The notes under the pieces are model-generated. The model saw only the letters and a list, made by a program, of their open reading frames with translations, searched no databases and was not told the DNA's origin. A program made the translations under genes and the position numbers. A stretch of 64,000 nt of DNA from NCBI RefSeq assembly GCF_044324785.1, contig NZ_CP172127.1; one strand, 5' to 3'. The DNA comes from Escherichia coli. Its GTDB lineage: Bacteria; Pseudomonadota; Gammaproteobacteria; Enterobacterales; Enterobacteriaceae. Positions 38,330-48,317 of this stretch are shown one piece after another. Numbering within the stretch: position 1 is the first letter of the stretch; the number at the start of each line of letters is the position of its first letter.

Positions 38330-38968
38330 ATGCCCGGGCGCTTTGAACTAAAACCAACCCTGGAGAAAGTCTGGCACGCGCCGGACAATTTTCGCTTCAT
38401 GGACCCGCTGCCGCCGATGCATCGTCGGGGGATCATTATTGCCGCCATTGTATTGGTGGTCGGATTTCTGCTTCCATCTGATGATACGCCCAACGCGCCG
38501 GTGGTGACGCGTGAAGCGCAGTTAGATATTCAGTCGCAATCACAACCGCCGACAGAAGAACAGCTGCGGGCGCAATTAGTCACCCCACAAAATGATCCTG
38601 ATCAGGTGGCTCCGGTCGCTCCAGAACCTATACAGGAAGGCCAGCCAGAAGAGCAGCCGCAAACCACCCAAACGCAACCATTCCAGCCAGATAGCGGAAT
38701 TGATAATCAATGGCGCTCTTACCGTGTCGAACCCGGTAAAACGATGGCGCAGCTGTTCCGCGACCACGGACTGCCCGCTACCGATGTCTATGCAATGGCG
38801 CAGGTAGAAGGCGCGGGTAAGCCGCTGAGTAATTTGCAAAACGGGCAGATGGTGAAAATCCGCCAGAACGCCAGCGGCGTGGTGACGGGCTTAACCATTG
38901 ATACGGGGAATAATCAACAGGTCCTGTTTACCCGCCAGCCGGATGGCAGTTTTATTCGTGCGCGGTAG
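38330..38968 (+). CDS. ytfB: OapA/LysM-like cell-division-associated protein
   Basis: 212 aa from internal ATG ([23 protein letters not shown]...), membrane anchor, Pro/Gln-rich linker. Confidence 0.8.
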
Positions 38969-39599
38969 ATGAAGGATCAACCAAAAGCCAGCTAAGGAGC
39001 GTCTCTTTGATGACCTTACGTCTGGCTTCCAGTGCCTGGGGGGAAACCATACTGATATGATAAACTAGGCCAAGCGTATGCTGGTTGATCAAATAATATC
39101 CCCCAAGCGCAGCAATATTAATATTCACCTGCAATGGGTCGATATCTGGCTTAAAAATATTGTGTTTCTTCCCTTCATCCAATAAGGATTCCATTAACTG
39201 CAAGTGCGCATGGTTAATTTCTAAGAGACGCTGTGATTTTGCATAATGCACACCTTTACTTTGATTTTCACTATGCACAATTTTTAAAAACCAGGGGTTA
39301 GCAATATAATAATCCCATGTAAAATCAATAATTTTCTCAATGGCTTTTTGTGGCGGAAGATCTGAGAAATCAAGGGCCTTTTCTTTTTGTCGAATATCGT
39401 TCCAGGTATATTCCAGTACTTCAATAAATAAATTTTCTTTATTACCAAAGTGATGATAAACCGTCTGTTTACTACACCCCGCAGCCTTAACAATATTATC
39501 GACCCTGGCCCCTTCATAACCATATTCGGCAAATTCATTAACCGCGCATAACAGCAGCTTTTCCTTCAGGCTCTGTACGTTGCTGGTATCAAGATACAT
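38952..39599 (-). CDS. TetR/AcrR-family transcriptional regulator, divergent from the accessory operon (possibly the intact form of K-12 ytfA)
   Basis: 215 aa from ATG at 39599; N-terminal HTH ([23 protein letters not shown]); 3' end overlaps ytfB by about 17 nt. Confidence 0.8.
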
Positions 39600-39721
39600 A
39601 ACGCTTCCCCACGACCTCTTCAAGACAACTATCTTAACCCGATTAATTAGAAGCTCCAGTAAAAAGGATAAAAACTTGTACTTTCATCAAGTTATCAAAT
39701 GTCCTGTGATCACTATCGCAT

Positions 39722-39743
39722 ATCAACCAACCAGATGGTTGAT
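39722..39743. promoter_or_regulatory. Perfect inverted repeat ATCAACCA-N6-TGGTTGAT in divergent promoter region; candidate operator of the TetR regulator
   Basis: Verified against ORF-track translation of this region; a second repeat CTTGCG-N6-CGCAAG lies at about 39748-39765. Confidence 0.4.
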
Positions 39744-39809
39744 CTTTCTTGCGGCACGTCGCAAGCTAATTGTCACTTAGAAACAATATTCAAAAAAGAG
39801 AGCTATTGT

Positions 39810-40601
39810 ATGAAATCCACTCGTCCTGTTGCCGTGATTACCGGAGCCGCTCGTGGTATTGGAAAGGGCTGTGCGCTGGAGCTTGCTCGTGGCGGATTTA
39901 ACCTGCTGATTAACGATCGCCCCGATGATGACAGCGTAGAAAAATTACATGCCACGCAACAGGAATGTCTGGCAGAAGGTGTGGAAGTGATTTGCTTCCC
40001 TGCCGATGTCGGCGATCTCTCCTTGCATGAAGAGATGCTCGACGCGGCACAAAACCAGTGGGGACGTCTGGACTGCCTGCTCAACAACGCAGGCATTTCA
40101 GTGAAAAAACGCGGTGACCTTCTCGACCTCGAACCAGACAGCTTCGACCAAAATATTGCCATTAACACCCGCGCACCGTTCTTCCTCGCTCAGGCATTCA
40201 GTAAGCGCTTACTGGCACAGCCGAAACCGGAAGCAGAACTGCCGCACCGCTCGATTATTTTTGTCAGTTCCATCAACGCCATCATGCTGGCGATGAATCG
40301 CGGCGAATATACCATTGCCAAAACTGCCGTCTCTGCCGCTGCTCGTCTGTTTGCTGCTCGGCTTTGTAATGAACAAATTGGCGTTTATGAAGTGCGTCCT
40401 GGTCTCATCAAAACCGATATGACTATTCCGGCAACGGCCTATTACGACGAACTGATTGCCAAAGGTCTGGTGCCGTGGGGACGTTGGGGTTATCCGGCTG
40501 ATATTGCTTCCACTGTCCGCGCGATGGCGGAAGGTAAACTGATTTACACCTGTGGTCAGGCGGTTGCCATTGACGGCGGCTTAAGTATGCCGCGTTTCTG
40601 A
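39810..40601 (+). CDS. Short-chain dehydrogenase/reductase (classical SDR, FabG-like)
   Basis: 263 aa; TGAARGIGKG cofactor motif, NNAG, catalytic Y-x3-K (YTIAK); RBS AAAGAGAG upstream. Confidence 0.8.
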   Translation: MKSTRPVAVITGAARGIGKGCALELARGGFNLLINDRPDDDSVEKLHATQQECLAEGVEVICFPADVGDLSLHEEMLDAAQNQWGRLDCLLNNAGISVKKRGDLLDLEPDSFDQNIAINTRAPFFLAQAFSKRLLAQPKPEAELPHRSIIFVSSINAIMLAMNRGEYTIAKTAVSAAARLFAARLCNEQIGVYEVRPGLIKTDMTIPATAYYDELIAKGLVPWGRWGYPADIASTVRAMAEGKLIYTCGQAVAIDGGLSMPRF

Positions 40602-40610
40602 GGCTGAATC

Positions 40611-41453
40611 ATGAGAGATCTGTTACAACGCCCGGATTTATTCAGTATCAATACCGCGACACTGGGCTATAAAACGCCGCTTCCCGCCATTATTGATGCC
40701 TGCGCCGCACGCGGTATTGGCGCAATTGCCCCCTGGCGCAGGGAGTTGCAGGGTGAAGATCTCCAGCAAATCGCCCGCCAGCTTGCCGCCAGTAAGATGA
40801 ACGTTTCCGGTTTGTGCCGTAGCACTTACTACACCGCGCCGACACTGGCGGAACGCAAACTGGCGATTGATGATAACCGCCGGGCGCTGGACGACGCAGC
40901 GGTGCTTAACGCCGCCTGTTATATGCAGGTGGTTGGCGGGTTACCGCAGGGAACAAAAGATTTGTACGAAGCGCGGGAACAAGTAAAACAAGGGATTCGC
41001 CAGTTGCTGCCACATTCGAAAGATGTCGGCGTGCCAATTGCGCTGGAGCCGCTGCACCCGATGACTGCTGCCGACCGCTCTTGCCTGTGCACGTTACGTC
41101 AGGCGCTGGACTGGTGTGATGAACTCGATCCCGATGGTGAGTTTGGCCTCGGCGTAGCGGTAGATGTCTACCATGTCTGGTGGGACCCGGATCTCGCCAG
41201 CCAACTCCAGCGCGCCGGAAAACGCATCCTCGCGTTTCATGTTTCCGACTGGTTAGTACCAACCACCGATCTGGTCAATGACCGTGGAATGCCGGGAGAT
41301 GGCGTCATCAATATTCCGTCAATTCGTCGGCTGGTTGAAAACGCCGGATTTAATGGCGCTATTGAACTGGAAATATTCTCGCCGTACTGGTGGCAAAAAG
41401 ATATTAACAGCACGCTGGATATTAGCGTCGATCGCATCGCGCATTATTGCTAA
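40611..41453 (+). CDS. Xylose-isomerase-like TIM-barrel enzyme (sugar-phosphate isomerase/epimerase or dehydratase superfamily)
   Basis: 280 aa; conserved metal-ligand-like positions (LEPLHP, HVSDW, ELEIFS); starts 9 nt after SDR stop. Confidence 0.75.
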   Translation: MRDLLQRPDLFSINTATLGYKTPLPAIIDACAARGIGAIAPWRRELQGEDLQQIARQLAASKMNVSGLCRSTYYTAPTLAERKLAIDDNRRALDDAAVLNAACYMQVVGGLPQGTKDLYEAREQVKQGIRQLLPHSKDVGVPIALEPLHPMTAADRSCLCTLRQALDWCDELDPDGEFGLGVAVDVYHVWWDPDLASQLQRAGKRILAFHVSDWLVPTTDLVNDRGMPGDGVINIPSIRRLVENAGFNGAIELEIFSPYWWQKDINSTLDISVDRIAHYC

Positions 41454-41462
41454 GGAATGATT

Positions 41463-42239
41463 ATGAGTGACCAACCCGTTCTGTTCAGCAGAGCGGCGGC
41501 TTCCTGCCGTCTGACATTGAACCGTGAAGATAAATGTCATGCTATTAATGAAGAGATGATTGAATCTCTCGATCATTATTTAAATGAAATTGAAAACGAC
41601 ACCACATTACGATTAGTCGAATTAACGGCAACCGGCGATAAATTCTTTTGTGCGGGCGGCGATATTAAATCGTGGTCAGCCTATTCGCCATTAGATATGG
41701 GCAGAAAATGGATTAAACGCGGTAATGACGTTTTTAATCGCCTGCGCAACTTACCCCAATTAACCGTTGCAAATCTCAACGGTCATACCATCGGCGGTGG
41801 TATTGAACTTGCTTTGTGCTGCGATATTCGTATTGCCCGTCCCGGCGCGAAATTCTCTAACCCGGAAGTGATGCTCGGCATGGTGCCTGGCTGGATGGGC
41901 ATTGAACGTGTGCTTAATCAGGTCGGTCCGGTGGTCGGTCGCCAGATGCTGATGCTGGGTAAACGCCTGACGGCGCGGGAAGCTCAGGCGGCGAATTTAA
42001 TTGATGAAGTGGTAGAAAAAGAACAGGTGGAAAGCTGGATGGCGAACCAGTTAGCGCAGCTGGAAAAATGTGGTCCGGTGGCGCTCGCACATATCAAGCA
42101 ACTGATTCTGGCACTGGAAAATAAACATGCCGATTACCCGCACCAGCTACTGGCTGGATTAATGTCCGCCACTCAGGATTGCCAGCAGGCGACGCGCGCG
42201 TTTGCCGAAAAAAGTAGCGTGAGCTTCCACAATCAATAA
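41463..42239 (+). CDS. Enoyl-CoA hydratase/isomerase (crotonase fold)
   Basis: 258 aa; oxyanion-hole segments FCAGGDIKSW and NGHTIGGGIELALCCDIRIA; start taken at second ATG, 6 nt after AAGGA. Confidence 0.8.
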   Translation: MSDQPVLFSRAAASCRLTLNREDKCHAINEEMIESLDHYLNEIENDTTLRLVELTATGDKFFCAGGDIKSWSAYSPLDMGRKWIKRGNDVFNRLRNLPQLTVANLNGHTIGGGIELALCCDIRIARPGAKFSNPEVMLGMVPGWMGIERVLNQVGPVVGRQMLMLGKRLTAREAQAANLIDEVVEKEQVESWMANQLAQLEKCGPVALAHIKQLILALENKHADYPHQLLAGLMSATQDCQQATRAFAEKSSVSFHNQ

Positions 42240-42248
42240 GGAAATTGT

Positions 42249-43790
42249 ATGCGTAAGATAACAACCGCCGAGGCACTGGCGGCGCAAATTCAGGACGGCG
42301 CAACCATTGCCATTAGCGGTAACGGCGGCGGCATGGTGGAAGCTGACCATATTATGGCCGCCATTGAAGCGCGTTTCCTGCAAACCGGACACCCTCGCGA
42401 TCTGACATTGATCCACTCGCTGGGTATTGGCGATCGCGACAGCAAAGGCACTAACCGTTTTGCTCACGCCGAAATGCTCAAACGCATTATTGCCGGACAT
42501 TTTACCTGGTCGCCCAAGATGCAGGAACTGGTGAAAAGCAATGCTATTGAAGCCTACTGTTTCCCTGGTGGCGTGATTCAGGCGTTGCTACGGGAGATCG
42601 GTGCCGGACGTCCGGGGCTTTTTACCCACGTTGGGCTGGGATCGTTTGTTGATCCACGCAATGGCGGCGGTAAGTCGAATGAATGCACTACCGACGACCT
42701 GGTAGAACTGATTGAAATCGACGGTGAGACCAAACTTCGTTATCGCCCTTTCAAAGTGGATTACGCGATTTTGCGTGGCACTTATGCCGATCCACGAGGC
42801 AACGTTAGCCTCGAAGAAGAAGCGATTGATATGGATAGCTATTCGATGGCGCTGGCAGCACACAACAGCGGTGGCAAAGTGTTCGTACAGGTACGCGATG
42901 TGCTGGAAGCAGGTGCCATTGAACCACGCCGGGTTAAATTACCGGGGATTCTGGTTGATGGCATCGTTGAACACCGCGAACAGCCACAAACCTATCTTGG
43001 CAGTTACGACCTGACCATCAGCGGCCAACATCGCCGTCTGAGTTCTAACGACGCTATTGAGCTGGTTAGTCATCCGGTGCGTCGCCTGATTGCCCGTCGG
43101 GCAGCGCGGGAACTGGTGGCAGGCGCTTCAACCAACTTTGGCTTTGGTATTCCCGGCGGCATTCCAGGAGTAGCGCTGCGCGAAGGCGTGCCTTACCAAA
43201 GTTTATGGCTGAGCGTCGAGCAAGGCGTGCATAACGGTATGATGCTGGATGATGCGTTTTTCGGCTGCGCCCGCAACGCCGATGCCATTATTCCATCACT
43301 CGATCAATTTGAGTTCTACAGTGGTGGAGGGATCGATATCACCTTCCTCGGCATGGGAGAGATGGATCAGTACGGTAACGTCAACGTATCCCATCTCAAT
43401 GGCAATCTGATTGGCCCCGGCGGATTTCTCGAAATTGCGCAAAATGCCCGTAAAGTGGTGTTCTGCGGCACGTTCGACGCTAAAGGCAGCAAAATCGATA
43501 TAACGCCAGATGGCTTGCATATCGCCCAGTCAGGTCAAATCCCTAAACTGGTTACCCAGGTGGAAAAAATCACTTTTAGCGCCGCCTACGCACAGCAAAG
43601 TGGTCAGGAAGTGTTGTATATCACTGAGCGCGCAGTATTCCAGTTAACGGCAGAAGGCGTTGAATTAATTGAAATCGCGCCGGGTGTAGAGATTGAGCGC
43701 GACATTCTGCCGTTCATGGCTTTCCGTCCAATTATCAAGCACCCACGCCTGATGGAAAGTAGCCTGTTTACGCCGATGGAGGATGCATGA
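42249..43790 (+). CDS. Family-I CoA-transferase, fused alpha/beta subunits (YdiF / propionate-CoA-transferase-like)
   Basis: 513 aa; N-terminal ISGNGGG and later SGGGIDITFLGMGEMDQYGNVNVS segments typical of 3-oxoacid CoA-transferases. Confidence 0.75.
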   Translation: MRKITTAEALAAQIQDGATIAISGNGGGMVEADHIMAAIEARFLQTGHPRDLTLIHSLGIGDRDSKGTNRFAHAEMLKRIIAGHFTWSPKMQELVKSNAIEAYCFPGGVIQALLREIGAGRPGLFTHVGLGSFVDPRNGGGKSNECTTDDLVELIEIDGETKLRYRPFKVDYAILRGTYADPRGNVSLEEEAIDMDSYSMALAAHNSGGKVFVQVRDVLEAGAIEPRRVKLPGILVDGIVEHREQPQTYLGSYDLTISGQHRRLSSNDAIELVSHPVRRLIARRAARELVAGASTNFGFGIPGGIPGVALREGVPYQSLWLSVEQGVHNGMMLDDAFFGCARNADAIIPSLDQFEFYSGGGIDITFLGMGEMDQYGNVNVSHLNGNLIGPGGFLEIAQNARKVVFCGTFDAKGSKIDITPDGLHIAQSGQIPKLVTQVEKITFSAAYAQQSGQEVLYITERAVFQLTAEGVELIEIAPGVEIERDILPFMAFRPIIKHPRLMESSLFTPMEDA

Positions 43791-45859
43791 GTCAGCTTGA
43801 TGACACCATCCTTGATGCGCTGACGCACGTCACTTTCCCAAAGGGGTTTGTGTCAGCAGAGCCAACGTCAATTGTCACCGTTGAGGATGTTGATTACCCG
43901 ATCTGGCAAGTTGATGCGCTGGTCGTTGGTAGCGGCGCAGCAGGATTACGTGCGGCAGTTGAACTTAAACGCCGCCAGCAAAATGTGCTGATCGCCACCG
44001 CCGGGTTATATATGGGGACGTCGGCATGTTCTGGTTCCGATAAACAGACGTTGTTTACCGCCGCTACCGCGGGCAACGGCGACAACTTCGCCAAACTGGC
44101 AGAGGCACTTGCGAGCGGTGGGGCGATGGATCACGACACCGCTTATGTCGAAGCGGTAGGTTCTCTGCACACTCTTGGCGGGTTGCAATATCTTGGTCTG
44201 GAATTACCGGAAGATCGCTATGGCGCGATTCTTCGTTATCAAACCGACCATGACGAAGCCGGGCGTGCAACCTCGTGTGGGCCGCGTACCTCAAGGTTAA
44301 TGGTGAAAGTGCTGCTGGAAGAAGTACAGCGTCTTGCTATCCCAATGTTGACCAGTGCAACAGTGATTAAACTGCTGCATCAGCGTGACGAAAACGGCGA
44401 AGACCGCGTGGCGGGGGCTATCCTCGCGACCGGTCATCGCGCCCATAACCCATGGGGGCTGGCAATTGTGATTGCGCCCAATGTGGTACTGGCAACAGGA
44501 GGGCCTGGCGAGCTTTATCGCGACAGTGTGTACCCACACAAATGTTTCGGCTCGCTGGGTCTGGCGCTGGAGGAAGGTCTGACGCTAACGAATCTGACTG
44601 AAAGCCAGTTTGGTATAGGCACACCGCGCAGCACGTTTCCGTGGAATTTGTCCGGGACTTATGTACAGGTGATCCCATATATCTATTCCGTGGATGCTGA
44701 GGGTAACGAGTATAACTTCCTCGCGGATTACTATCGCACCACCCAGGAGCTGGCTTCAAACATTTTCCGTAAAGGCTATCAGTGGCCGTTCCACGCCACT
44801 CGGGTGATGGATTTTGGCTCCAGCTTGTTAGATATGGCAGTAGCGCAAGAGCAGCAATCAGGGCGTCAGGTATTTATGGATTTCAATCGCAATCCTGAAG
44901 CGGTGCCGGGTGACCTGCCCTTCTCATTAGATCGACTGGACGACGACGTTCGCGCGTATCTGGAAAATAACGACGCTCTGGCACCATCGCCCATCGAACG
45001 GCTGCAACGAATGAATCCGCTGTCTATCTCGCTGTATAAGATGCACGGTTACGATCTCACCACACAGCCATTGCAGTTTGCCATGAATAATCAGCATATG
45101 AATGGCGGCATTGAAGTCGATATCTGGGGACAAACATCTCTACCCGGTTGTTTTGCAGTGGGGGAAGTTGCTGGCACACACGGCGTCACCCGACCTGGCG
45201 GCGCGGCATTGAATGCCGGGCAGGTTTTTGCTGTTCGTCTGGCACGTTTTATTGGTTGCACGCAAAAGCGGAATATTGATGGAGATATAGCACAGCTGGC
45301 AGCTCCGGCACTGGCTTCTATAAGAGAGATCATTACTCAGGCGCACGATAACGGGACCGGGATGCCGTTGTCGGTTGTGAGAGAAAAAATTCAGGCACGA
45401 ATGTCTGACCATGCGGGATTTATTTGTCATGCCGATAAAGTCCGACGCGCCACTCGTGATGCCCTGCTATTGAACGAATTTGTCCAACGGCATGGATTGG
45501 CAATCAAACATGTGGGTGAAGTTTCCGAGCTGTTTATGTGGCGGCATATGGCGCTGACTTCTGCCGCGGTATTAACACAATTAACGCATTATATTGATGC
45601 TGGTGGCGGCAGTCGTGGGGCGCGGATGGTTATTGATCCACAAGGCAAATGCCTACCACAAACTCGTCGCGGCGTAAAAGAAGAATGGCGTTTTCGCTCT
45701 GAACTCGCTGAAGATAAAAATCACAAATTAACAATTCAATATTCGCAAGGTTCTTTTATTACCGAAGTAAAGTCTTTACGTATGCAACCGTGTATTAACG
45801 GTATTTACTTTGAAAAAAACTGGCCAGACTTTTTAAAGGGAGACATTTACACACAATAA
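43787..45859 (+). CDS. FAD-binding oxidoreductase of the fumarate-reductase/succinate-dehydrogenase flavoprotein superfamily
   Basis: 690 aa; dinucleotide fold VVGSGAAGLRAA, later GEVAGTHGVTRPGGAALNAGQVFAVRLARF; ATGA overlap with upstream gene. Confidence 0.75.
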   Translation: MSQLDDTILDALTHVTFPKGFVSAEPTSIVTVEDVDYPIWQVDALVVGSGAAGLRAAVELKRRQQNVLIATAGLYMGTSACSGSDKQTLFTAATAGNGDNFAKLAEALASGGAMDHDTAYVEAVGSLHTLGGLQYLGLELPEDRYGAILRYQTDHDEAGRATSCGPRTSRLMVKVLLEEVQRLAIPMLTSATVIKLLHQRDENGEDRVAGAILATGHRAHNPWGLAIVIAPNVVLATGGPGELYRDSVYPHKCFGSLGLALEEGLTLTNLTESQFGIGTPRSTFPWNLSGTYVQVIPYIYSVDAEGNEYNFLADYYRTTQELASNIFRKGYQWPFHATRVMDFGSSLLDMAVAQEQQSGRQVFMDFNRNPEAVPGDLPFSLDRLDDDVRAYLENNDALAPSPIERLQRMNPLSISLYKMHGYDLTTQPLQFAMNNQHMNGGIEVDIWGQTSLPGCFAVGEVAGTHGVTRPGGAALNAGQVFAVRLARFIGCTQKRNIDGDIAQLAAPALASIREIITQAHDNGTGMPLSVVREKIQARMSDHAGFICHADKVRRATRDALLLNEFVQRHGLAIKHVGEVSELFMWRHMALTSAAVLTQLTHYIDAGGGSRGARMVIDPQGKCLPQTRRGVKEEWRFRSELAEDKNHKLTIQYSQGSFITEVKSLRMQPCINGIYFEKNWPDFLKGDIYTQ

Positions 45860-45951
45860 TTTTCAATATTTCCTCTGTACCTGATTTTTATTGCCTATTA
45901 CATGGAAATACCAACAACCAGGGTTTATTAATATAATTAAAAGGTTTAAAA

Positions 45952-47229
45952 ATGAATAAAATAAAGAATTATCGATGGCATATGATTGCCCTCGTATGCT
46001 TTATCACTGTAATCAATTATCTGGACAGAACGGCGTTAGGTATTGCGGCTCCAACGATTATGGAGACAACCGGAATAACTAAAGAGCAATATTCATGGAT
46101 TGTCAGTGCATTCCAGTTGGCCTATACATTAGGGCAACCGGTAATGGGCTTCTTTATTGATACCGTGGGTCTGAAGTTAAGTTTTGCGATATGTGCCGCA
46201 ATTTGGGGCCTGGCGACAATGGGCCATGCACTAACCGGAACGTGGTCTGGTCTGGCATTTATGCGCGCCCTGATGGGTTTCAGCGAAGCGTCGGCAATTC
46301 CGGCGGGTGTAAAAACCGCATCAACATGGTTCCCGGCAAAAGAGCGTGGCGTGGCGACAGGTGTTTTCAATATGGGCACCTCACTCGGCGCGATGCTTGC
46401 TCCACCGTTGATTGCCTGGTGCATTATGTTTCATAGCTGGCAATTTGCGTTTATTGTTTCAGGTAGCCTTGCTTTGCTCGCGGCTTTATTTTGGTTCTTT
46501 TGTTATAAAGATCCGAAAGATGCCAAACGCCTTTCTGATGAAGAGCGCCACTATATTGAATCAGGGCAAGAACAGCATCTTAAAACAGATAAGAAAGAAA
46601 AAACGTCAATCAAGCATATCCTCAGCCAACGTAATTTCTGGGGGATTGGCATCGCGCGTTTTCTCGCAGACCCGGCATGGGGAACCATTAACTTCTGGGT
46701 GCCGATTTTCTTCGTCGAAACGCTGCATTTTAGCCTGAAAGAAATTGCCATGTTCGTCTGGCTGCCTTTCCTGCTGGGCGATCTCGGCTGTTTAGCCAGT
46801 GGTTTTGTCGCGAAGTTCTTCCACGATCGCGGCGTGAGTTTAATTAACTCACGAAGAATTACCTTCACTATTGCAGCCGTCATTATGATGACGATTGGCC
46901 TGGTGAGTATTGTCGAAAATCCCTACATTGCCGTATTACTGATTAGTATTGGCGCGTTCTCGCATCAATGTCTTTCTACTGTAGCAGCAACTCTGGGTGG
47001 CGATCTGTTCAAAAAAGACGAAGTAGCTACCGCAGTGGGTATGGCAGGAGCCTGTGCGTGGAGCGGTCAGTTGATTTTCAACCTGTTCATCGGGGCATTC
47101 GTTCACATTATCGGCTTCGCGCCGTTCTTTATTGCCCTGGCTTTCTTTGACATTATTGGTGCTATTGCGTTGTGGACGCTTATCAAAGTTAAAGATGAAG
47201 AACCGCAAGTACAGCTAGCTACCCATTAA
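45952..47229 (+). CDS. MFS transporter, anion:cation symporter (ACS) family, ExuT/DgoT-like
   Basis: 425 aa; N-terminus NYRWHMIALVCFITVINYLDRTALGIAAPTIME and FPAKERG loop resemble hexuronate/aldonate transporters. Confidence 0.85.
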   Translation: MNKIKNYRWHMIALVCFITVINYLDRTALGIAAPTIMETTGITKEQYSWIVSAFQLAYTLGQPVMGFFIDTVGLKLSFAICAAIWGLATMGHALTGTWSGLAFMRALMGFSEASAIPAGVKTASTWFPAKERGVATGVFNMGTSLGAMLAPPLIAWCIMFHSWQFAFIVSGSLALLAALFWFFCYKDPKDAKRLSDEERHYIESGQEQHLKTDKKEKTSIKHILSQRNFWGIGIARFLADPAWGTINFWVPIFFVETLHFSLKEIAMFVWLPFLLGDLGCLASGFVAKFFHDRGVSLINSRRITFTIAAVIMMTIGLVSIVENPYIAVLLISIGAFSHQCLSTVAATLGGDLFKKDEVATAVGMAGACAWSGQLIFNLFIGAFVHIIGFAPFFIALAFFDIIGAIALWTLIKVKDEEPQVQLATH

Positions 47230-47242
47230 TTATTTTAAATAA

Positions 47243-47272
47243 AAACGCTATAATTGAGGTTATGGCGTTTTT
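47243..47272 (+). terminator. Probable rho-independent terminator after the MFS transporter gene
   Basis: AAACGCTATAA...TTATGGCGTTT stem (one G-U pair) followed by T-run. Confidence 0.4.
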
Positions 47273-47499
47273 AAAGAAGCTTGAGTTATCGAACCTCGCT
47301 TACCAACGCGTTGTCAATCATATCCCCCCTCCCTGCTGCATCGTTATATCCACAATGAGCGATTTTTGATATTAATATCTTTCACCATCCGCTATTTTCA
47401 CTACTTCAGAAAACAAACTTATTTTTATTAATATCGATTCTTTATTCTGTAAACATTCAGCTGAGATATTTATAAAAACATTAAACAGGCAACGATACA

Positions 47500-48294
47500 A
47501 TGACATTACCAACCACTATTTATTCATTTCCTGCATATTCACCCCGTTTTTCGTCCACCGACAAACCAGTAAAATTAAAATTTCATCAATACGCACGCGC
47601 TACATTACTTTCAAATCGTGGAAGAGATCATAATTGCGATGGCAGACATACTGTTGAGATCCACAAACTAGATCTCTCAGACTGGCAAGCATTCAATAAA
47701 CTAGCGATGGCGTGTAATGCTTACGATGGAATAACAATGAATGGTGATAATTCTTTTGGATGGAACCATGAAGCTACATTAGATAATATTCACGCCCAGA
47801 AATACAATAAAGCTTACGCGGGTGCGAGGTTAACCGCAGAACTGAAATATTTATTGCAAGATGTCGAATCCTTCGAACCCAACAGTAAATACACAATACA
47901 CGAGGTTGTTTTGGGTCCAGGTTATGGTACTCCAGACTATACCGGCCAAACGATAGGATACGTTGTAACCCTTCCTGCCCAAATGCCTAATTGCTGGTCA
48001 TCTGAACTACCAACAATCGATCTTTATATCGACCAACTTCGCACTGTTACAGGCGTTTCTAATGCCCTCGGATTCATCATTGCTGCATTGCTAAACGCGT
48101 ATTCTGATTTACCCCATGATTTGAAAATTGGTCTGCGTTCCTTATCAAGTTCAGCAGCAATCTACTCGGGTTTGGGTTTCGAGCGAGTGCCGCAGGGCCG
48201 AGACATAAGGTGCGATCATATGCATCTAACGCCAGCAAACCATCCTGAATTATGGACACAAGAGAATGGTGAATGGATCTACTTGCGAAACTAA
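47500..48294 (+). CDS. yjfZ: Uncharacterised DUF2686-like protein YjfZ (AT-rich gene)
   Basis: 264 aa, no motifs recognised, preceded by 270-bp AT-rich spacer; position next to rplI matches yjfZ. Confidence 0.7.
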   Translation: MTLPTTIYSFPAYSPRFSSTDKPVKLKFHQYARATLLSNRGRDHNCDGRHTVEIHKLDLSDWQAFNKLAMACNAYDGITMNGDNSFGWNHEATLDNIHAQKYNKAYAGARLTAELKYLLQDVESFEPNSKYTIHEVVLGPGYGTPDYTGQTIGYVVTLPAQMPNCWSSELPTIDLYIDQLRTVTGVSNALGFIIAALLNAYSDLPHDLKIGLRSLSSSAAIYSGLGFERVPQGRDIRCDHMHLTPANHPELWTQENGEWIYLRN

Positions 48295-48317
48295 TACCTG
48301 ACGAAAAATAGAAAGCA

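Follow-up and report, generated by a model that had tools for sequence, protein, structure and literature searches.

The hexuronate isomerase pathway (ExuT, UxaC, UxuB/UxaB, UxuA/UxaA, KdgK, Eda) is one of the closest described counterparts of the system analysed here, namely a module of seven open reading frames (ORFs) between ytfB and yjfZ (38952-47273; ORF list with RefSeq-type starts) in a 64-kb window of an Escherichia chromosome, by which we mean the whole stretch of DNA analysed, with the gene order cycA-fklB-ytfB ... yjfZ-rplI-rpsR-priB-rpsF. The module comprises a TetR-family regulator gene, five enzyme genes encoding a short-chain dehydrogenase/reductase (SDR), a TIM barrel, a crotonase, a CoA-transferase and a flavoprotein related to fumarate reductase (FRD), succinate dehydrogenase (SDH) and NadB, and a transporter gene of the major facilitator superfamily (MFS). 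The substrate class and the end product are probably shared by the two systems, an 85 % paralogue of the module transporter serves a cluster of uxuA, fructuronate reductase and uxaC genes, and the TIM barrel and the SDR of the module could fill the isomerase and reductase roles. However, UxaC, UxuB and UxuA have no homologue among the five enzymes, and no module protein has an NCBIfam match to UxaC/UxuA/UxuB or to Udh/Gci/KdgD; moreover, the dehydration in the module would be CoA-dependent and would come with an extra flavoprotein. Another comparison is offered by KduI/KduD and DhuI/DhuD, which lead from 5-keto-4-deoxyuronate to 2-keto-3-deoxy-hexonate (KDG) by an isomerase and an SDR acting on a keto-deoxy uronate, as is proposed for the module. 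Non-homologous isomerases are already known for the 5-keto-4-deoxyuronate step; KduI and DhuI have a cupin or RpiB fold, whereas the module has a TIM barrel.

As for the chemistry of CoA esters, the E. coli carnitine operon caiTABCDE and the module both bring together a transporter, a CoA-transferase, a dehydratase of the crotonase type and a flavin oxidoreductase to act on a beta-hydroxy acid; caiTABCDE differs in having a family III CoA-transferase instead of family I and an acyl-CoA dehydrogenase fold instead of the FRD fold, and the module for its part has no fixABCX partner and adds the SDR and the TIM barrel. The 2-deoxy-D-ribonate cluster of Klebsiella michiganensis (CoA synthetase, beta-hydroxyacyl-CoA dehydrogenase, thiolase, glycerate kinase, lactonase) likewise degrades a sugar acid through CoA thioesters in an enterobacterium, yet the module was rejected as a deoxyribonate pathway, since that cluster has no FRD-like protein, TIM barrel or crotonase (PMC6365646). 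The levoglucosan and 3-keto-glycoside pathways, with a Gfo/Idh/MocA enzyme and a xylose-isomerase-like TIM lyase, share with the module the common logic of C-H activation for beta-elimination. In fact, sister clusters of the flavoprotein family carry Gfo/Idh/MocA proteins, one type being levoglucosan-dehydrogenase-like (308 bits against a cut-off of 650), and in the clusters of the same clade as the window they are paired with a TIM barrel as in the levoglucosan-type pathways; in the module, by contrast, the pair of CoA-transferase and crotonase takes the place of the Gfo/Idh/MocA enzyme, and an acid is imported. Finally, the soluble FRD-family enoate reductases include fumarate, urocanate, acrylate and cinnamate reductases with partner domains that are FMN_bind or resemble old yellow enzyme (OYE). 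The module flavoprotein is like them in its FAD_binding_2 catalytic domain, in its presumably non-covalent FAD and in the OYE fusion of one family member, and unlike them in its identity (at most 13-19 %), in the replacement of the QxHPT His by Gly and in having no partner domain in E. coli. The initial annotation knew of no described pathway with this enzyme set, and our searches bear it out, for none was found in the literature searched, in PDB entries or among AFDB50 names, and the searched literature makes no mention of the module genes or their accessions. The module is a catabolic operon of known superfamilies in an undescribed combination, and it includes an orphan flavoenzyme family.

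The gene content and the layout are collected in Table 1. All seven genes that the initial annotation had placed here were recovered in the ORF list where it had put them, and its description of gaps or overlaps of 3-9 nt is consistent with the measured distances, as the enzyme genes are spaced by 9, 9 and 9 nt, then by a 4-nt ATGA overlap of the CoA-transferase and flavoprotein genes, with a further 92 nt before the MFS gene. Its family assignments hold as well in the profile and structure-database searches (NCBIfam; Pfam FAD_binding_2 and AP_endonuc_2; YdiF at 5e-115). Some E. coli database entries contain a 1078-aa read-through protein that joins the CoA-transferase and the flavoprotein across the ATGA overlap at 43787-43790 (P0006); at the other end, the TetR gene and ytfB are convergent with a tail-to-tail overlap of 17 nt (38952-38968). 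In comparisons with Klebsiella, Salmonella and an E. coli allele that carries a tripartite ATP-independent periplasmic (TRAP) transporter, the dN/dS values of the genes lie between 0.03 and 0.09, except for the replaced MFS gene (0.18) and the flavoprotein gene (0.20), the latter having its 3' end swapped in the TRAP-form allele. Such values indicate that the module genes are under strong purifying selection. Because of the tight spacing, the intact motifs, the low dN/dS and the conserved palindrome and CRP-like motif described below, the block is, as far as sequence can tell, a real and intact operon that is kept functional.

Table 1. Positions of the module genes, putative regulatory elements and variable segments within the window.
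Feature	Positions	Strand	Basis
TetR/AcrR-family regulator	38952-39599	-	ORF; longest ORF reaches 39623; RefSeq orthologues 648 nt
Putative CRP-like motif TGTGA-N6-TCGCA	39705-39720		Consensus and conservation
Candidate TetR operator, perfect inverted repeat ATCAACCA-N6-TGGTTGAT	39722-39743		Inverted-repeat search of the spacer
Classical SDR oxidoreductase, NCBIfam PRK12745 family, named '3-ketoacyl-ACP reductase'	39810-40601	+	NCBIfam and motifs
Xylose-isomerase-like TIM barrel (AP_endonuc_2)	40611-41453	+	Pfam, 1.7e-37
Crotonase-family enoyl-CoA hydratase/dehydratase	41463-42239	+	NCBIfam matches below cut-off, and motifs
Family-I (YdiF/Pct-type) acyl-CoA:carboxylate CoA-transferase, fused	42249-43790	+	YdiF 2ahu, 5e-115
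FRD/SDH/NadB-like flavoprotein, 690 aa	43787-45859	+	Pfam FAD_binding_2, AlphaFold2, Foldseek
ACS-family MFS sugar-acid transporter	45952-47229	+	TIGR00893, 315 bits
Terminator-like hairpin, 15-bp stem and U tract	47240-47273	+	RNA folding
Segment absent from K-12-type genomes	39355-47330		BLASTN of DH5alpha against the window
Segment exchanged in TRAP-form alleles	45620-48311		BLASTN of L002 against the window, annotation, sequence comparison

The regulator is encoded divergently from the five-enzyme operon and has a dN/dS of 0.03-0.04. Its NCBIfam matches are of TetR type over residues 14-140, every one of them under its cut-off, and Pfam TetR_N and TetR_C_29 are recorded on the Klebsiella and Salmonella orthologues; thus the N-terminal helix-turn-helix, the C-terminal domain, the divergent orientation and a palindromic candidate operator, as would be looked for in a TetR regulator, are all found. 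The candidate operator, an 8-N6-8 palindrome, is the sole inverted repeat of the divergent spacer, is found in the window a single time where chance predicts 0.01, and falls within the best-conserved intergenic block of E. coli, Klebsiella and Salmonella. Directly upstream of this putative operator is the CRP-like motif, which reads GGTGA-N6-TCACA in Klebsiella and AGTGA-N6-TCACA in Salmonella, the spacer being otherwise diverged; that CRP is the reader of this motif we infer from the known consensus. A promoter scan gave no convincing sigma-70 promoter or hexamers that could be placed for the operon, and the promoter and terminator scan of the window showed no enrichment over shuffled sequences; a weak promoter-like site at 45832-45860 precedes the MFS gene. 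The terminator that had been claimed after the transporter gene is found as a hairpin followed by a U run, and the segment 47225-47335 folds at -20.7 kcal/mol (z = -2.3 against shuffles), although the simple terminator scan did not list this hairpin. Altogether we hold with good confidence that the module is a TetR-repressed operon for the catabolism of a sugar acid, probably under catabolite control.

The SDR scores 421 bits against the 250-bit cut-off of PRK12745 and keeps the classical motifs TGxxxGIG, NNAG and YxxxK intact, its nearest PDB entries being 4one/5vn2 and 4da9 (1e-56), which have generic names only; a FabG function finds no support, as the corresponding models reach 112-127 bits against cut-offs of 222-298 and the context is catabolic. 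The TIM barrel is nearest to the PDB entries 3qc0, 3ju2 (SMc04130, 1e-85) and 7vpf, all with generic or 'uncharacterized' names, and has weak NCBIfam matches to IolO, Hyi, FrlC and OtnI. Since its annotated remote relatives are solely IolO, Hyi, FrlC, OtnI and IolI, it is probably an isomerase or epimerase of keto-sugar acids; a role as 3-dehydroshikimate dehydratase or quinate enzyme was considered, and no NCBIfam profile match supports it. For the crotonase, all NCBIfam matches to enoyl-CoA hydratases lie under their cut-offs, the catalytic glutamates of a hydratase/dehydratase are present (GGGIEL at 111, PEVMLG at 134), and a 3-hydroxypropionyl-CoA dehydratase (5zai, 2.5e-40) is its closest match in the PDB. 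The CoA-transferase aligns over its full length with YdiF (2ahu) as a family-I enzyme, its E324, within an (S/T)xExG motif (SVEQG), falling on E333 of YdiF (VETG), which we take to be the catalytic glutamate.

The AlphaFold2 model of the flavoprotein (pLDDT 90.7, pTM 0.92) is confident and has the FAD_binding_2 fold together with the capping and C-terminal helical domains of the FRD/SDH flavoproteins, and by Foldseek against the PDB it superposes in full length on SdhA, FrdA and NadB at just 13-19 % identity; no closer solved structure was found in the PDB searches, and none of its best 50 AFDB50 relatives bears a functional name. Its family amounts to 420 representative clusters (50 % identity) at E <= 1e-30 and extends from Enterobacteriaceae to Planctomycetota, gut Firmicutes and an Asgard archaeon. 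In the FRD/SDH flavoproteins the His of the RSH motif carries the covalent FAD and the His of QxHPT binds the second carboxylate. A profile alignment to NadB and FrdA reveals that the former is absent, the family reading 'GTSxNSGSDKQT' there, and that the latter is replaced by Gly, the family reading 'ESQFG', while the GxGxxG dinucleotide fold is intact and the invariant His437 (QH437xNGG) and Arg469 (R469PGG) are kept. This pattern fits a non-covalent flavin, and it fits one carboxylate beside the bond that undergoes oxidation or reduction, in a pocket that is otherwise remodelled; many invariant polar residues would be compatible with a polyol substrate. NadB identity is not supported (TIGR00551, 98.6 bits against a cut-off of 452.75; its 690 aa exceed the 540 aa of E. 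coli NadB), and no Fe-S or membrane-anchor partner subunits occur in about 80 neighbourhoods of the family. The flavoprotein is therefore, by its residues and model, a branch of the FRD/NadB superfamily which shares the fold and fails the defining features of FRD/SDH and of NadB. A natural OYE::FAD fusion in a distant relative (P0150, locus L094) lies between TIM-barrel and SDR genes, near genes for an aldolase of the dihydrodipicolinate synthase (DHDPS) type and a solute symporter; this fusion, and an adjacent OYE gene in other clusters, speak for a genuine redox reaction that involves a partner in electron transfer, in the direction of either enoate reduction or dehydrogenation.

To see in which company the flavoprotein is found, one genome per species was scanned for its relatives and the neighbouring ORFs of the same loci, about 80 in number, were clustered. 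The tree has three clades, each with characteristic partners. In the clade of the window, which covers Enterobacterales, Verrucomicrobiota, Lentisphaerota and some Planctomycetota and Betaproteobacteria, the SDR and the TIM barrel are always present, accompanied by either a Gfo/Idh/MocA dehydrogenase or the CoA-transferase and crotonase, never by both; in Brenneria, the SDR, TIM-barrel and flavoprotein genes stand with an MFS gene of the PcaK-like, aromatic-acid type and without either of these additions. In Alphaproteobacteria the flavoprotein gene usually lies between genes for a levoglucosan-dehydrogenase-like Gfo/Idh/MocA protein and a KdgK-like kinase, the usual neighbours being LacI, aldehyde dehydrogenase and a glucose-type ABC importer (binding protein against 4R2B, 4e-184), to which are added two GMC oxidoreductases or, alternatively, the CoA-transferase and crotonase. 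In anaerobic Phycisphaerae a conserved operon consists, in this order, of an OYE/GltD-type reductase, an SDR, an aldolase like that for 2-keto-3-deoxy-6-phosphogluconate (KDPG), in some cases a BNR_4 propeller, the flavoprotein and a KdgK-like kinase. The CoA-transferase and crotonase pair recurs in independent arrangements, with CoA-transferases of family I or family III, and two loci (L017 and L074) add acyl-CoA dehydrogenase, electron-transfer flavoprotein (ETF) and MaoC genes, whose best matches are acryloyl-CoA reductase components. From these comparisons the TIM barrel, the flavoprotein and the SDR emerge as the conserved functional core, and the CoA-transferase and crotonase as a swappable sub-module that replaces an oxidoreductase step. 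Moreover, because KdgK-like, KDPG-aldolase-like or DHDPS-type aldolase genes flank the flavoprotein gene in Alphaproteobacteria, in Phycisphaerae and in L094, the usual end point of the pathway would be a 2-keto-3-deoxy sugar acid, subject to phosphorylation, aldolase cleavage or both. Flavoproteins from clusters with and without the CoA-transferase and crotonase are interleaved in the tree, and this comparison of tree and neighbourhood disfavours a strict CoA-ester enzyme.

The substrate is best approached through the transporters. We searched 5426 complete E. coli genomes and found the five-enzyme core (at least 80 % coverage) in 3114 of them (57 %), with universal flanks and a polymorphic middle. 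The MFS gene is present in 1685 genomes and a TRAP transporter takes its place in 1446, and since these add up to 3131, in agreement with the count of genomes that have the core, each core is accompanied by one of two importers. The MFS protein belongs to the ACS family according to TIGR00893, at 315 bits against a cut-off of 395. It had been called ExuT-like at first, which is borne out at the level of the ACS family only; no ExuT model is among the 25 best of its 39 NCBIfam matches, and a hexuronate substrate is supported independently. In fact, its 85 %-identical paralogue occurs on many E. coli plasmids, divergently adjoining the canonical glucuronate set of uxuA, uxaC and the genes for a fructuronate reductase and an FCD regulator. 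On pCP53-mcr (L092, NZ_CP033094.1 43235-49995), for example, the FCD regulator, uxaC, fructuronate reductase, uxuA and paralogue genes lie beside ISKpn21 and aph genes, a mobile sugar-acid cassette on large antimicrobial-resistance plasmids. For the TRAP system, the nearest solved relatives of the solute-binding protein (WP_000695892) form a DctP block (4x8r, 4n8y, 4n15, 4n91, 4mhf/4mij; E 1e-56 to 1e-71). It keeps N31, Q32, R146, R166, N206 and D233, that is six of the seven residues that contact D-glucuronate in STM3169, at constant spacing to the STM3169 numbering, as would be expected of a hexuronate-binding protein. According to the literature, 4N8Y, 4X8R, 4N91 and 4MHF are glucuronate or galacturonate binders. 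The closest cluster outside Enterobacterales that combines CoA-transferase, crotonase, TIM barrel and flavoprotein is L017, and its TRAP solute-binding protein matches 4NX1/4OVP at 4e-84. These two entries are probably complexes with D-taluronate and D-mannuronate. A second strain-variable sugar-acid locus, between ygiQ and ftsP in E. coli AR_0017 (L093), holds genes for an FCD regulator, a protein of the mannitol-dehydrogenase family, a zinc-dependent alcohol dehydrogenase, an Ldh-family oxidoreductase and a TRAP system whose binding protein is 56 % identical to that of the module. On account of the context of the MFS paralogue and of the relatives and contact residues of the TRAP protein, the substrate is probably a hexuronate or a close derivative of it.

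Putting these observations together, our leading proposal, on which we remain almost evenly divided, is a TetR-repressed and probably CRP-dependent operon that would convert a hexuronate (D-glucuronate-like, possibly a uronate refractory to UxaC) into a 2-keto-3-deoxy acid via CoA-thioester dehydration. The acid would be imported by the ACS-family transporter, or by the TRAP system in other alleles, and the YdiF-type CoA-transferase would turn it into a uronyl- or aldonyl-CoA thioester. As the open-chain thioester would be an alpha,beta-dihydroxyacyl-CoA, the crotonase could remove the beta-hydroxyl, and the resulting enol would tautomerise to a 2-keto-3-deoxy acid of the 5-keto-4-deoxy-uronate type; the net dehydration would equal that of UxuA/UxaA or of a polysaccharide-lyase-type elimination, the CoA being passed on to the next substrate molecule. 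This thioester formation followed by crotonase dehydration is for us a possible step, somewhat on the doubtful side. The TIM barrel as isomerase or epimerase and the SDR as reductase might then bring the keto-deoxy intermediate to KDG in the manner of KduI/KduD, an analogy that we hold no more firmly, and the housekeeping KdgK and Eda would finish it. The flavoprotein would perform a redox step at C-alpha/C-beta or at the alpha-C-O next to the carboxylate, perhaps to make a non-standard uronate fit this route, or else as an enoate reductase. Observed directly are the genes with their undamaged catalytic motifs, the purifying selection, the preserved synteny, the conservation of the operator sequence, the kinship of the transporters with hexuronate systems and the core of TIM barrel, flavoprotein and SDR across phyla; the order of the steps, the CoA-dependent dehydration, KDG as the end point in E. 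coli and the exact reaction of the flavoprotein are what we infer from this reasoning. Several points weigh against the proposed hexuronate route. The seventh contact residue of the TRAP binding protein is changed (E74 to Q70), transporter specificity is unreliable at 45-56 % identity, and what the clusters of Alphaproteobacteria take up is a neutral sugar resembling glucose. For plain glucuronate the route would be superfluous, since E. coli already has UxaC/UxuAB and KduID. The Brenneria set implies that the core may act without CoA, on a different acid, and a uronyl-CoA intermediate is not reported in the literature searched. On paper, the CoA-transferase, crotonase, TIM barrel and SDR suffice for the way from hexuronate to KDG, which leaves the universal flavoprotein without a necessary role. 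The two ways out are that the key deoxygenation or entry reaction belongs to the flavoprotein, with the CoA-transferase and crotonase on a branch, or that a further redox reaction is required for the true substrate.

Other readings give the flavoprotein or the CoA-dependent pair a different part. The module may resemble carnitine metabolism, with the CoA-transferase, crotonase and flavoprotein activating, dehydrating and reducing a beta-hydroxy acid (as enoyl-CoA or as enoate), the sugar acid serving partly as an anaerobic electron sink and the SDR and TIM barrel preparing the substrate or finishing the product. The logic is that of caiB/caiD/caiA; the missing covalent-FAD His speaks for it too, as a non-covalent flavin fits the reductases of the superfamily, and so do the OYE::FAD fusion and the adjacent OYE/GltD gene, which connect the family with ene-reduction and with electron transfer, and the acryloyl-CoA-reductase-like neighbours (acyl-CoA dehydrogenase, ETF, MaoC) in L017 and L074. 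Nevertheless, a reduced 4,5-unsaturated uronate would be a 4-deoxyuronate with no obvious way into central metabolism, the E. coli module holds no electron-donor gene, and the interleaving of the tree makes the flavoprotein probably independent of a CoA substrate, so that we regard this reading as rather unlikely. Alternatively, the flavoprotein could dehydrogenate C4-C5 to give a 4-keto (beta-keto) acid that loses CO2, after which the SDR and TIM barrel would turn a 4-keto-pentose into a pentose or pentulose, with the CoA-transferase and crotonase on a side branch. Then the minimal Brenneria set of SDR, TIM barrel, flavoprotein and MFS would be a complete pathway; SDH-type enzymes do oxidise hydroxy-acids to enols, and the title of one paper (PMC10523364) indicates that carbonyl migration in uronates can give pentoses. 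This oxidative decarboxylation is nonetheless quite improbable, for the KdgK-like kinase and the KDPG- or DHDPS-type aldolase neighbours in other clades suggest a 2-keto-3-deoxy acid of six carbons, an unactivated C-C bond is poorly oxidised by a non-covalent flavin, and the CoA-transferase and crotonase are left unexplained.

The doubt may also be directed at the substrate itself, which could be a cyclitol acid of the quinate/shikimate type, an ulosonic acid, or a C3-C4 hydroxy acid from a conjugate, processed via CoA esters. Here the PcaK-like transporter of Brenneria, the c61 MFS protein that scores with aromatic-acid symporters, the neighbourhood of YdiF to ydiB/aroD in K-12, the 3-hydroxypropionyl-CoA dehydratase as best PDB match of the crotonase, and the sialidase-like BNR_4 propeller in the Phycisphaerae operon would find an explanation; but the two E. 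coli transporters are unrelated to each other and both lead to hexuronate systems, and the TIM barrel has no match to the dehydroshikimate-dehydratase model, which makes such substrates unlikely. An operon for the beta-oxidation of fatty acids or short-chain acyl-CoA, as the NCBIfam names '3-ketoacyl-ACP reductase', 'FadX' and 'enoyl-CoA hydratase' and their scores would have it, is hardly credible, given that thiolase, acyl-CoA dehydrogenase and acyl-CoA synthetase are all absent from the module, that a TIM barrel of the sugar type occurs together with sugar-acid transporters, and that the neighbours across phyla are sugar enzymes. A last alternative concerns the origin of the locus and not its chemistry, namely the metabolic island with an unclear route of mobilisation which the initial annotation saw here, taken as a horizontally acquired block inserted between ytfB and yjfZ in some strains. 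Presence and absence are indeed polymorphic, the TetR and MFS genes are lower in G+C than the flanks, and the transporter end has been replaced by recombination. Against this stand the same TetR / SDR-TIM-crotonase-CoA-transferase-flavoprotein-MFS module in Klebsiella oxytoca and Salmonella enterica, likewise placed between cycA-fklB-ytfB and rplI, the relics of the TetR and SDR genes that persist in K-12, and the host-like G+C of the enzyme genes. The annotation was right that integrases, transposases and flanking direct repeats are lacking: no integrase, transposase or recombinase gene is found at 38.9-47.3 kb or in the orthologous loci, direct repeats at the flanks are just short, imperfect and at chance level, and in addition there is no tRNA gene between positions 30 and 55 kb of the window. 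Thus three marks of a genomic island, i.e., a mobility gene, a tRNA gene or direct repeats, and absence from the site in related genera, are all missing. For the enzyme core the island reading is refuted, and as an account of the whole module we rate it very low; it holds for the transporter/yjfZ end only.

The orthologues in Klebsiella and Salmonella share 77-93 % amino-acid identity with the module proteins at dN/dS of 0.03-0.06 and saturated dS, as expected for vertically inherited genes, and homologues are also found in E. albertii, E. marmotae and Shigella. The module had been described as self-contained, indel-polymorphic and absent from K-12 but for a ytfA remnant, and BLASTN, the genome counts and the K-12 derivative DH5alpha agree with this. 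Between ytfB and yjfZ, DH5alpha holds just a TetR pseudogene 'missing N-terminus' (= ytfA), and the window segment 39355-47330 is absent; about 103 bp between the K-12 breakpoints correspond to a decayed piece of the SDR gene (about 39899-39968) at 82-83 % identity. K-12 therefore keeps two decayed relics of a once complete module, the C-terminus of TetR and a fragment of the SDR. Given the same site in Klebsiella and Salmonella, these relics and the dN/dS values of vertical type, the simplest history is that of an ancestral enterobacterial locus which was repeatedly deleted, and this explains the missing mobility genes and repeats. Present in 57 % of the genomes, the module is what most E. 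coli have and not a rare accessory. The forms of the locus, more numerous than the initial annotation had recognised, comprise MFS, MFS with a hipBA-like pair, TRAP, deletion, and deletion with IS609. The insertion sequence IS609 (IS200/IS605 family, tnpA and tnpB) is confined to deletion-type genomes; it sits in the TetR relic of O157:H7 F7386 (L005 2604-4251) and of several other deletion-type E. coli, with its target between window positions 39056 and 39059.

In the TRAP-form alleles, the final ~240 nt of the flavoprotein gene, the MFS gene and yjfZ are exchanged for a divergent 3' end of the flavoprotein gene and genes for the TRAP small permease, large permease and binding protein; it is clearly the right-hand end alone (transporter and yjfZ) that is exchanged by recombination. 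The MFS proteins of Klebsiella and Salmonella, though of the same ACS family, are just 51 % identical to that of E. coli. The yjfZ gene (DUF2686; window 47500-48294) is itself a variable slot in E. coli: a hipA/helix-turn-helix (hipBA-like) toxin-antitoxin pair replaces it in some MFS-form strains (L003 10876-12637), hipA being frameshifted in the strain examined, the gene is absent from TRAP-form genomes (L002), and in Klebsiella and Salmonella an EamA-family gene stands there (L090 13468-14394). The module region of the window (39810-45859) is 92-97 % identical to other E. coli, against 99.6-99.8 % for the adjoining rplI region, and its dS reaches 0.26 against a TRAP-form allele. This high divergence suggests old allelic lineages that have been maintained by recombination.

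To sum up, more than half of sequenced E. coli, the Klebsiella oxytoca group and some Salmonella carry an intact, selected and regulated operon without an assigned function, which has probably been overlooked because K-12, O157:H7 and the laboratory strains have lost it. It is conceivable, though far from assured, that the operon represents an undescribed uronate route with CoA-thioester activation and crotonase dehydration, in which a new and widespread branch of the FRD superfamily acts directly on sugar acids. Such a route may open up uronates beyond the UxaC pathway, for example L-iduronate, mannuronate/guluronate or 4-O-methyl-glucuronate. If the substrate is a uronate derived from the host or the diet, the module would be a niche-relevant nutritional trait that separates lineages of E. 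coli. In biochemical terms, CoA-thioester chemistry would be added to the catabolism of sugar acids, and a large orphan family of FRD-like flavoproteins would obtain its first function.

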